64,000 nucleotides of DNA from a virus. Its lineage: Duplodnaviria; Caudoviricetes. The stretch covers positions 11,653-75,652 of IMG/VR virus record IMGVR_UViG_2588253903_000005; one strand, written 5' to 3'. Positions 4,569 through 47,244 of the stretch are shown piece after piece. How positions within the stretch are numbered: position 1 is the first letter of the stretch; each line of letters starts with the position of its first letter. The notes beneath the pieces are model-generated. The model was given only the letters and a program-made list of their open reading frames with translations, was not told the origin of the DNA and did not search any database. A program made the translations under genes and the position numbers.

Positions 4569-4659
4569 AATATTTTCCTCCATTTTTATTTGTTCCAACC
4601 CCGGCATTTCTGCCGGACGCTCCCAACTTAATGGACTTTTTAGAGCCGTTGGGACGGCT

Positions 4660-11403: not shown

Positions 11404-12045
11404 ATGACGACTGAAACCATGACCGTGCATAAGGCTCTGGCAGAATTAAAGCTGCTTGACATCCGGATTGAGAAAGCAATCGCAGAAGGTGTTTACTGCG
11501 TTGCGAACAAACATTCAAACGATAAGATAGGCGGCGTTCCGCTTGATGATTACATTAAAATCATGCAGGGCGGATATGACAAGGCAACTGACTTTATCAA
11601 CCGTCAAACGGCAATAAAACGAGCAGTCACACTTTCCAATGCTGTAACCAAAGTCGAAATTTCTGGCGTGGAATATACAAGAGCAGAAGCCATTTGGATG
11701 AAAAATCACGGAATGGAATTTTGCAAAACACTTATGAATGCTATGCGGAGACAATATGATAAGGCTCAAATGCAAATCAATCTGGAAAACGGAAAAGACC
11801 TTGAACAGAGGGCAGAGCAGTATGTAACCGCAATCTACGGGCAGAAAGAAGGAAAGACAAATACTGCTGACATCGAAAAGGTCAAGGCAGACTTTTTAAA
11901 ATCCAACCAGTACGAACTGGTTGACCCGCTCCACGTCCTTGACAAGATTGAAGATTTGGAGAAGAAAATCAATGATTTCATGGCAGAAGTTGACAGCTCA
12001 TTATCGGTCAGCAACGCCTTAACCGAAATCACGATTGAATATTAA
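11404..12045 (+). CDS. Predominantly helical/coiled-coil hypothetical protein (213 aa) preceding the large ncRNA
   Basis: GGAGG RBS; MTVHKALAELKLLDIRIEKAI...LEDLEKKINDFMAEVDSSLSVSNALTEITIEY is amphipathic. Confidence 0.8.
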   Translation: MTTETMTVHKALAELKLLDIRIEKAIAEGVYCVANKHSNDKIGGVPLDDYIKIMQGGYDKATDFINRQTAIKRAVTLSNAVTKVEISGVEYTRAEAIWMKNHGMEFCKTLMNAMRRQYDKAQMQINLENGKDLEQRAEQYVTAIYGQKEGKTNTADIEKVKADFLKSNQYELVDPLHVLDKIEDLEKKINDFMAEVDSSLSVSNALTEITIEY

Positions 12046-12059
12046 AAATTAAATGAATT

Positions 12060-12460
12060 TTATCCACTGTTTACCGAAAACCCCAAACTACAATTCATAC
12101 GTCTTTTGCAGATACAGACATATGTAAAACAATAAAGAAATCTGCAAACTTCAATGGACGAAGATAATATGAATTGGTCTTGAAAACCAAATTTGCATAA
12201 ACAATGTGTCGGCGGTTCGATTCCGTCCAAGTCTTCGGACTTGTAGCTCAGTCGGGAGAGCGATTGTAAAAACAAAACGCACTGTAAAGATTAAAGAGTA
12301 AAGCTCAAATCTTAAAGCTGAAAGGTCAAAGTTTATTTTCTTCAAAGTTGAAAGAGCAAAGGTAAAAGACAAAAGTTTTACAAAATCCTTGGGAAATGTT
12401 TATTCGGGCTAATTGTAATTGCTGATGGGTTTAACACAAGGCTGGTAAATGGTGGGTTAT
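12060..12460 (+). ncRNA. Putative ~400-nt structured ncRNA of unrecognised family
   Basis: No credible ORF; long-range pairs 12064-75/12444-55, 12078-83/12427-32, 12089-95/12411-17, 12387-91/12437-41; permuted tRNA core; heptamer array. Confidence 0.75.
12283..12375 (+). repeat. 12 heptamers, consensus NNNAAAG
   Basis: TGTAAAG ATTAAAG AGTAAAG CTCAAAT CTTAAAG CTGAAAG GTCAAAG, 9-nt spacer, TTCAAAG TTGAAAG AGCAAAG GTAAAAG ACAAAAG. Confidence 0.85.
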
Positions 12461-12469
12461 ATGAATTAT

Positions 12470-12505
12470 CGGCGGCAGCTTGTTGGTCTCGTTGCCGCCG
12501 GTTTT
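12470..12505 (+). terminator. Strong hairpin with short T run after the ncRNA
   Basis: CGGCGGCAGC/GTTGCCGCCG then GTTTT. Confidence 0.5.
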
Positions 12506-12759: not shown

Positions 12760-13103
12760 TTTAGTGTCGAACATTCGTACCATTTGGCACTCCTTTCACC
12801 CCGTAGCGGAATGCTGTTAAGAGCCTTCGCAAGGCTTGCGGGGATTCGTCAAGGAAAAGACATTAAAACCCGCTTGCCAGAGCGTATAAGTGGCGATACT
12901 AAAGCCCGGCTACTGCTTGAGGGCAATATAAAAAAGAGCAGCGTGTAGATTGGCGGTAAGACGATGCGAATCTCAAATAACCGCATTCTGGATGATGCCC
13001 ACGTCATTGTATAATTGGTGATGCATACTAGTTTGGACAGAATCCGATTGTCAGTAAAGACATGCAAAATCCTATGCAGTCCTCATAGACATAAATTGGA
13101 CGG

Positions 13104-13287
13104 TGTTGCGTGGCGGAATAGATAAACGCTAAAGTGTAGCTCTTATAGATTGGTTGGCATTACAAGGTGTAGCCGTAAAAGAACAATTACTGTATAACAA
13201 GTCATCTCCGAGCAGAGGGCGAATGAGCCACGGAAAGGCAGAAATGCAAACTCCAATCATGTGTGGTGCAAATCCACACCGCAACAT
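13104..13287 (+). ncRNA. tRNA-framed RNA with ~130-nt insert replacing the anticodon arm
   Basis: Acceptor TGTTGCG/CGCAACA, D arm GCG-GAATAGATAAA-CGC, T arm GTGTGG-TGCAAAT-CCACAC, GATTGG/CCAATC stem at the base of the insert. Confidence 0.6.
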
Positions 13288-13413
13288 TTAGTTAGGCCAT
13301 TCCTAGCTAGACAGGAGTAAATCGGTCACTGCCCTGTCGAATCAAAAATAACGCTGGCAGGAACATTCTTTCTGCCAGATAAACCGCAAAATGAAGTCAG
13401 GAGGGATTTTGTC

Positions 13414-14121: not shown

Positions 14122-14215
14122 TTAACAACGGGATAGCCCGACGGGGCGAAAAGCAAAACCGTGATTGCCTGTCCGTTGTTTCAACTAATATCACGGGATT
14201 ATCAACATGTAGGTA

Positions 14216-14818: not shown

Positions 14819-14931
14819 TTTAATCTTGGTAAATTCAATAGGCTAGGGTAGCTCCCAAAAAGCGTCCTCCAACGCCTGCCTATTGTTTTTATAAATTTGG
14901 AGGATTAGAAAAATGGATTGGAGGTCATTTT

Positions 14932-47028: not shown

Positions 47029-47244
47029 TAGACAGGAGGATTCTTTCCATACCTTTAATGAAAATTGGTGTATGGAATTTAGTTTATTATAAAGAAAAAT
47101 ACAGAAGAGCTGGCATACCTAACTATGAAGAAAAGCTTGTTAATGTTGGTTACATCTGGGGATAGGCTGACGAGCCGAAAAGTACAAGCCTTAGTACCTG
47201 CCCCGGTTTGACATAAGGCAGTTTGCGGAAAGGCGGTAAAGAGC

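Follow-up and report, generated by a model that had tools for sequence, protein, structure and literature searches.

In the trp leaders of Bacillus, the target of TRAP consists of 11 (G/U)AG triplets separated by spacers of 2-3 nucleotides (nt), and this RNA is wrapped around an 11-mer of the protein; further TRAP sites overlap the Shine-Dalgarno sequence (SD) of trpG, trpP and ycbK. The HutP site in the hut leader of B. subtilis is made of two blocks of three NAG triplets with a 7-nt period, about 20 nt apart, and the two blocks are read by two faces of the HutP hexamer. Small RNAs (sRNAs) of the CsrB/RsmZ type sequester a protein, and ribosomal proteins autoregulate by mimicry of their rRNA site. 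The locus considered here is an array of twelve heptads within a structured non-coding RNA (ncRNA) of a virus of the Caudoviricetes. It is found in a 64,000-nt stretch of DNA (positions 11,653 to 75,652 of the IMG/VR provirus record IMGVR_UViG_2588253903_000005), hereafter the window, from whose first letter all coordinates below are counted. The array is conserved by selection, is predicted to lie unpaired in a loop of a pseudoknotted RNA, and is strictly linked to an upstream gene for a protein of 213 amino acids (aa), referred to below as the partner protein. It can be hypothesized that the array is a single-stranded multivalent platform read by the partner protein, which would also repress its own translation; the probability of this reading is put at roughly 45%.

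Read directly from the window, the array (12283-12386) consists of seven units, a 9-nt spacer, five units and a tail, as follows.

12283-12331, + strand: array block A, seven NUYAAAR heptads in the window sequence (TGTAAAG ATTAAAG AGTAAAG CTCAAAT CTTAAAG CTGAAAG GTCAAAG), with no pairing in the consensus fold
12332-12340, + strand: spacer TTTATTTTC (= UUUAUUUUC), conserved in its opening UUUA only
12341-12375, + strand: array block B, five heptads according to window sequence and alignment (TTCAAAG TTGAAAG AGCAAAG GTAAAAG ACAAAAG)
12376-12386, + strand: tail TTTTACAAAAT (= UUUUACAAAAU), with a conserved UUUAY and the invariant AAA of AAAUCC, leading into helix P2

This layout, with AAAG at the end of 11 of the 12 units, is the one given in the preliminary description, which a model had made from the sequence alone, and the period is indeed real rather than a product of chance. 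Tandem Repeats Finder returns a period of 7 with matches of just 72%, and the identity autocorrelation of the array at lag 7 reaches z = 6.1. The longest period-7 chain of AAAG is 6, compared with 2 to 4 in 200 Markov-1 simulations of the 64-kb window, and a chain of 5 was reached by none of 20,000 shuffles of the array's 104 nt. A chance origin of the period-7 array is thus excluded. Counting units by the starts of A-runs over-splits them; the frame of the alignment was used instead.

Relatives of the locus were fetched via the upstream protein (313 in IMG/VR, of which 80 loci were kept, plus Dulem virus 39), and 31 non-redundant RNAs from these relatives formed the alignment. Their partner proteins are 44-66% identical to that of the window, the nearest being that of Dulem virus 39 (78%). 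In 31 of 31, a column-by-column alignment of the array gives the 7+5 frame: seven units, UUUA plus a variable spacer (9-13 nt in total), five units and UUUAY-N-AAAUCC. Block A measures 49 nt in 21 of the 31, 50 nt in eight and 51 nt in two, and block B 35 nt in 18, 36 nt in 12 and 43 nt in one. These insertions of one or two nt within the blocks, where 2-nt spacers are sometimes 3-nt ones, make a rigid register unnecessary. Alignment columns T67, T68 and A69 of the spacer are conserved, the remainder being variable, while columns A117-A119 and C121 of the tail are invariant.

Over 147 homologous units, the consensus is N-U-Y-A-A-A-R, with an information content of 0.2, 1.0, 0.65, 2.0, 1.84, 1.2 and 0.6 bit at the successive positions. 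Position 2 is U in 75% of the units, position 3 is C or U in 93%, A4 is found in 100% and A5 in 98%, and the final G in 62%. The conserved core of the unit is therefore A4 and A5, with a weak final G and constraint on positions 2 and 3. The preliminary description, according to which the first three bases vary freely while the period and AAAG are conserved, holds for position 1, the period and A4/A5; it has to be amended for position 2 (mostly U), position 3 (a pyrimidine) and the G (only 0.6 bit), so that the unit is NUYAAAR rather than NNNAAAG. Position-specific conservation is seen in unit 1 (UGUAAAG) and in unit 7 (UUCAAAG, then UUUA). Pairwise column identity amounts to 0.63 in the array, against 0.54 and 0.62 in the helical cores and 0.15 in the variable insert upstream. 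Selection thus acts on the array, which is conserved to the same degree as the helices of the RNA. A recent slippage repeat, already doubted in the preliminary description, is excluded because the array is conserved like the helical cores while the insert is not: near-identical units in varying copy number would be the mark of such a microsatellite, whereas the units here match at 72% and are positionally orthologous in one 7+5 frame in spite of the divergence of the partner proteins.

A loose search for AAAG at the array's period returned mostly unrelated (TTTAAAG)n microsatellites (L009-L013), and an exact 32-nt pattern from the 3' domain of the RNA, which is over-specific, found nothing in IMG/VR. 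Contigs L009-L013, from unrelated phages in IMG/VR, bear long intergenic (TTTAAAG)n or (GTYTAAA)n arrays with neither the partner gene nor the RNA frame.

The RNA around the array is described by the following elements.

12064-12455, + strand: whole structured ncRNA (about 390 nt), closed by the 13-bp helix P1, identified by covariation
12064-12076 with 12443-12455, + strand: P1, 99.3% paired, 11 of 13 pairs covarying
12063-12146, + strand: RAGATH-27 motif (Rfam RF03100) with an H-type pseudoknot
12096-12104 with 12116-12124, + strand: S1 of the H-type pseudoknot, covarying
12107-12113 with 12140-12146, + strand: S2 of the H-type pseudoknot, covarying
12078-12083 with 12427-12432, + strand: PKa, a long-range pseudoknot, three of six pairs covarying
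12089-12095 with 12411-12417, + strand: PKb, a long-range pseudoknot, 98.2% paired, five of seven pairs covarying
12078-12095, + strand: 5' strands of PKa and PKb
12387-12441, + strand: 3' domain, comprising P2, P2b and P3
12387-12391 with 12437-12441, + strand: P2, 100% paired, three of five pairs covarying
12397-12399 with 12434-12436, + strand: P2b, three of three pairs covarying
12407-12409 with 12421-12423, + strand: P3, whose loop forms PKb
12201-12267, + strand: optional circularly permuted tRNA-like module (T arm, acceptor stem closed by UUCG, D arm), a YrlA-like match and an indel in the alignment

The eight helices were evaluated on the full-length alignment against slid partners and 500 shuffles. 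Paired cells amount to 91.5%, compared with 34-42% with slid partners, and changes on both sides are seen in 41 of the 53 pairs; the observed values were reached in none of the 500 shuffles. No column of the array is paired by RNAalifold in the 31 sequences, which makes the array about 105 nt of unpaired RNA in a large loop of the knotted core. A minimum-free-energy fold of the single sequence puts small hairpins in the array, none of which is conserved in any relative. Judging from the alignment, the array lies within a loop that leaves and re-enters a compact, triply pseudoknotted RNA supported by covariation, and the earlier view of it as single-stranded and internal to the ncRNA is upheld.

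The loop that contains the array also houses the variable insert, of which the tRNA-like module is part in the window. The related locus L060 and Erwinia phage Simmy50 possess the module, which is missing in Dulem virus 39; the Simmy50 copy (about 2256-2330 of L187) is a permuted tRNA-like module whose acceptor is closed by a GAAA-type loop. As Simmy50 is a jumbo phage, the module recurs across very distant members of the class. Within the insert, at 12155-12171, a hairpin (TTGGTCTTGAAAACCAA) displays the loop CUUGAAA, which is the anticodon loop of the neighboring tRNA-Ser(UGA), and a like hairpin (CAGACTTGAAATCTG) is found at the equivalent place in L060. Together with the permuted module, this hairpin gives the variable insert the look of a rearranged tRNA-Ser, with the anticodon arm followed by a permuted top half.

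The gene and its leader complete the locus.

11404-12045, + strand: partner protein gene, 213 aa; the non-coding island begins right after its stop codon
11372-11392, + strand: leader heptads of the partner gene (TATAAAA ATTAAAG TTTAGGA), which run into the SD GGAGG, with the ATG at 11404

Linkage between gene and RNA is strict. When IMG/VR was scanned with a pattern for the RNA only, 79 matches were obtained, and the protein gene lies 187-310 nt upstream in 70 of them, that is, in 70 of the 70 evaluable loci; of the remaining matches, eight fall in truncated loci and one arose by chance inside a recombinase gene. By tblastn, at least 742 phage records hold a relative of the partner protein. 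Eight distant phages were opened (T5_ev219, Bacillus JBP901, Lactococcus 949, Vibrio River4, Klebsiella KP12, Pseudomonas PE09, Erwinia Simmy50 and E. coli Av-05), and in all eight the gene is followed by 400-475 nt of unannotated DNA (about 1,060 nt in Av-05) with a common frame of P1, AAAUCC-P2 and GGCUG-P1. No Rfam family was found for the RNAs of these phages. Most of the eight loci are in or beside tRNA clusters, and the gene-RNA pair spans T5-like, Vequintavirinae, Vibrio, Pseudomonas, Erwinia jumbo and Lactococcus phages. The window shows the features of the whole class, namely the upstream partner gene, P1, AAAUCC-P2...GGCUG and a loop with a period of 7-8 nt. At the equivalent place, the autocorrelation at lag 7 or lag 8 reaches z 2.9-5.2 in seven of the eight distant phages. 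The core of the heptad drifts between lineages, e.g., UUxA in River4 and UUUAxAG in 949. That the period outlives the motif across phage lineages points to a co-evolving, phage-encoded reader.

Regarding the partner protein, no Pfam or NCBIfam family was found. It matches phrog_1491 (3e-50), whose label 'tail fiber protein' is an unsupported mislabel. Its AlphaFold2 model (predicted local distance difference test 90.5) is a long helical hairpin bundle capped by a four-strand sheet. The sole clear structural relative is PDB 3kdq (DIP1984-like), an uncharacterized protein from Corynebacterium (Z 10.3), further fold matches being uncharacterized phage proteins and generic helical bundles (F-BAR, CdvA, ClyA-like) with Z of 7 or less. 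Matches in the ESM Atlas are to unnamed clusters only. Sixteen lysine or arginine columns are conserved in the family.

Heptads of the array type are found a second time at the locus. In the relatives, the 50 nt before the start codon of the partner gene contain two to four of them, ending against the SD, e.g., UAUAAAG UUUAAAA UUCAAAG UUAAAAAGGAG in the leader of L015. Leaders were scored for three tandem units with the position weight matrix of the array itself, and 196 leaders from the same loci served as controls. The 95th percentile of the controls is exceeded by 26 of the 29 partner leaders, with medians of 12.9 bits for partner leaders and -11.4 for controls, a control maximum of 7.0, and a Mann-Whitney p of 3e-16. 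The leaders of T5, KP12, Simmy50 and 949 outscore every control. When both strands are considered, no site outside the RNA scores higher than the leader site in 24 of 31 loci. The leader heptads persist while the leader sequences diverge, and they recur in very distant phages. Another heptad-like series, ATTGAAT ATTAAAA ATTAAAT (8.5 bits), lies at 12034-12054, across the stop codon of the partner gene and just 5' of P1.

The reading in which the partner protein is the reader is favored because of the strict linkage, the leader heptads, and the retention of the period while the motif drifts, and the conserved lysine or arginine columns of the protein also speak for it; the identity of the reader, the stoichiometry and the autoregulation are inferred from these data. 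The knotted core, made of P1, the two long-range pseudoknots and the H-type pseudoknot, would hold out the loop of about 105 unpaired nt, which would present 7 + 5 copies of a 5-nt core, UYAAA, with two (sometimes three) free nt between them. Copies of the 213-aa protein would bind side by side, one per heptad, much as TRAP and HutP read spaced triplets, and the tolerance of the blocks to one or two additional nt is as expected for beads on a string. The two to four heptads against the SD of the protein's own mRNA would be second binding sites, and any protein in excess of the RNA would then block translation of its own mRNA in the manner of ribosomal proteins and TRAP.

Several observations weigh against the partner protein as the reader of a fixed array. 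It is acidic (isoelectric point 5.2-6.4 in 20 of 21 homologues), no known RNA-binding fold is recognized in it, and its relative 3kdq is itself uncharacterized. In the wider class, unit number varies (about 5+4 units in L008), and a defined 12-mer is therefore unlikely. The 31 aligned sequences are mutually related, and counts among them are of non-independent events. Linkage of gene and RNA could reflect co-transcription alone. The leader of the window (7.9 bits) is above all 196 controls and second best within 4.5 kb, with two clear units and a score that is equaled by about a dozen chance sites in 64 kb. On the other side, and in favor of the reading, expression of the array RNA is weakly hinted at by contigs from RNA libraries, which show neither ends nor levels and come from libraries that can hold DNA: exact metatranscriptome contigs from mouse gut, in two studies, cover 12076-12360 (run X16) and 12270-12471 (run X18), and in run X15 contigs end at 12355 and 12458. 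The protein gene is covered by no contig of runs X16 and X18, where uncovered stretches carry no evidence of absence.

Other readers, or none, can be considered. Heptads could be a sponge or recruitment site for a host factor that binds single-stranded RNA (S1, the 30S subunit, Hfq or a nuclease), by mimicry of AU-rich enhancer or standby sites, the leader heptads then being simple enhancers. The unpaired, A/U-rich nature of the array, the acidity of the partner protein, and the position of the heptads directly 5' of the SD in most partner leaders, where AU-rich enhancers are expected, are consistent with this view. It is nevertheless unlikely, as other leaders in the same phages are devoid of the motif (196 controls, with a maximum of 7.0 against the median of 12.9 bits), strict 7-nt phasing and invariant A4A5 are more specific than general AU-richness, and a motif that drifts while its period is kept is more in line with a phage-encoded reader that co-evolves than with a host protein that is conserved. 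Alternatively, the heptads may not be read at all and the array may be a structural tether, that is, a long, unpaired, A-stacked loop that would, for example, keep the tRNA-like module off the core. A-rich sequence avoids pairing, and the array does lie between the variable insert with its module and the 3' domain. A tether needs no invariant A4A5, pyrimidine at position 3, position-specific end units, UUUA after the blocks or 7+5 frame, and it leaves the heptads in the partner-gene leader unexplained, which makes it slightly less likely still. Docking between RNAs, either by pairing with loops of other RNAs or by multimerization of the RNA as in ROOL/GOLLD-type assemblies, is improbable. It is suggested by the location in or beside tRNA clusters in most of the phages inspected, by the tRNA-like modules that the RNA can carry, and by the presence of a phage RtcB ligase; for example, UUCAAAG could pair through its UCA-A with the UUGAA of the Ser-UGA anticodon loop. 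The invariant A4A5 do not track the tRNA set (Gln, Ser, Ser and Cys in the window), UGUAAAG is unit 1 in almost every relative whatever its tRNAs, no complementary CUUU-type array was seen elsewhere in the RNA, and the variable positions have no covarying counterpart. A codon-like reading of the variable triplets against the four phage tRNAs was tried as well and rejected, with matches no better than the three-frame expectation.

Two further explanations concern DNA or the repeat as such. The omega repressor of Inc18 plasmids binds 7-bp heptads, and the two blocks of direct 7-bp repeats look like iterons, so that the array can be imagined as iterons, as the operator of a DNA-binding protein, or as an origin or partition site, all the more as a replication-initiator-like gene lies 2.5 kb downstream. 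Such a DNA-level element is very improbable for an array that is inside an RNA with covarying enclosing helices, always on the sense strand and at a fixed place in the RNA, and that is present in RNA-library contigs; the leader copies also abut the SD, which is a translational and not a promoter position. Regular 7-nt units would suit a template that defines a register, as put forward in the preliminary description, or a recently expanded slippage repeat. The chance of either is slighter yet, and the template is to be abandoned: no reverse transcriptase was found in the 75.6-kb record, insertions of one or two nt break the register, and the variable positions hold no conserved information. Slippage is at odds with units that are 72% alike yet positionally orthologous across distant relatives.

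If the partner protein is the reader, a broader and more doubtful proposal can be built upon it, in which the heptad loop and the DIP1984-like protein would form an undescribed, widespread phage ribonucleoprotein (RNP), from phages of gut Bacillota to T5, Vequintavirinae and jumbo phages, with about 12 protein copies polymerized on the loop and a stoichiometry set via the SD heptads. Such a particle would act on the tRNA economy, e.g., by shielding, sorting or repairing tRNAs attacked by host anticodon nucleases, and this role may have to do with the tRNA cluster, the phage RtcB and the tRNA mimics that some members carry. No description of the partner protein, the full RNA or the array was found in the literature search, a 2026 preprint on tRNA mimics dealing with other RNAs, and all three appear to be undescribed in the literature found. 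The pair nonetheless occurs in the at least 742 phage records mentioned above, T5 included, where the protein is labeled 'tail fiber' or hypothetical and the RNA falls between annotated features. The RNA is unusual in its design, with a pseudoknotted core that holds out a periodic, unpaired array. Should a protein polymer read this array, the complex would represent a new viral RNP class, tractable in E. coli with T5. The tRNA-cluster setting, with tRNA mimics and RtcB, ties the RNA to the question of what large phages need their tRNA genes for, and bears on how they withstand tRNA-targeting defenses.

With regard to the surroundings, the record of 75.6 kb is 82% complete, and the DNA holders of the stretch are mouse-gut metagenomes. 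Phage genes in the window include Ant, a serine recombinase, a replication initiator and the RtcB ligase, together with the four tRNA genes. A strong GC hairpin (CGGCGGCAGC...GTTGCCGCCG) at 12468-12500, beyond the 3' end of the RNA and ahead of tRNA-Ser(GCU), may be a processing or terminator element. In run X15, an RNA-library contig of depth 82.6 joins 11357, where tRNA-Gln ends, to 12761, where tRNA-Ser(UGA) does, and skips 1,403 nt; it could come from a relative devoid of the protein-RNA-tRNA cassette or be an assembly chimera between tRNA ends. Downstream of the two tRNA-Ser genes, about 650 nt (12761-13413) contain no long open reading frame (ORF). Within them, 13110-13212 matches unannotated DNA of three Brochothrix phages at 84.6% identity, and a tRNA frame with a large insert had been noticed at 13104-13287 in the first reading of the sequence; the region is possibly another conserved ncRNA. 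Rfam gathering scores are exceeded by a pistol ribozyme and three int-alpA RNAs, at 4594-4659 (- strand), 14126-14196, 14836-14903 and 47155-47219 (+ strand).

Among described RNAs, RAGATH-27 (RF03100) is the one to which part of the window RNA can be assigned: its first 84 nt (12063-12146) match the model with 92.1 bits, above the gathering score of 76.1. The Rfam model covers 86 positions with one annotated hairpin and ends about 137 nt before the array, leaving the array, P1, PKa, PKb, the 3' domain and the partner protein outside. At E <= 0.1, it misses the relatives L004, L014, L008, T5, JBP901 and 949, and no paper on a function of RAGATH-27 was found in the literature search. The tRNA-like module is reminiscent of YrlA, a bacterial Y RNA (RF02553; Chen et al. 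2014, PMC4201824): some members of the phage class have a T arm, a closed acceptor stem and a D arm in the order seen in YrlA, and the ends of the RNA pair. In the phage RNA the module is optional, Y RNAs lack a heptad array, and the match at 12203-12265 (model positions 23-85) scores 36.3 bits, below the gathering score of 69. No match to PF05731, the Ro60/TROVE domain, was found in the 75.6-kb, 82% complete record. ToxI-like type III antitoxins have repeats of about 34-45 nt beside a ToxN-like neighbor, whereas the period is 7 here and no ToxN-like match was obtained in the neighboring ORFs (Pfam, PHROGs). A transfer-messenger RNA was found by neither ARAGORN nor Rfam, and with a period of 7, TAA occurs in each of the frames.

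The systems introduced at the outset are closer in their mode of action. As in TRAP sites, a short core with free spacers is repeated about a dozen times in unpaired RNA, and secondary sites at an SD imply translational control. The core is UYAAA with a period of 7 in the phage array, as opposed to (G/U)AG with a period of 5-6; the 9-11 (G/U)AG triplets at 2-3 nt from each other that make a TRAP target are thus not seen in its NUYAAAR units. The phage array is part of a stable structured ncRNA rather than of an attenuator, and its partner is a helical bundle and not a beta-sandwich ring. The partner protein contains no TRAP domain, since it belongs to no Pfam family at all, and no TRAP (MtrB) domain was found in the seven neighboring ORFs scanned along with it. 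With the HutP site, the array shares a 7-nt period and two blocks with a spacer; it differs by 7 + 5 units instead of 3 + 3, by its core, and by a context that is not that of an antiterminator, and the scanned ORFs are devoid of a HutP domain. In common with CsrB/RsmZ-type sRNAs and with the feedback of ribosomal proteins, many copies of a short site are borne by a stable ncRNA and the site is found again at the SD of an mRNA, here that of the partner itself. The copies are A-rich heptads in one long unpaired loop in the phage RNA and GGA in hairpin loops in CsrB/RsmZ, and the protein is phage-encoded and unrelated to CsrA. While it falls outside these families, the phage array would fit a mode of action that combines the reading of spaced sites, as by TRAP and HutP, with a feedback of the kind exerted through CsrB-type RNAs and by ribosomal proteins.
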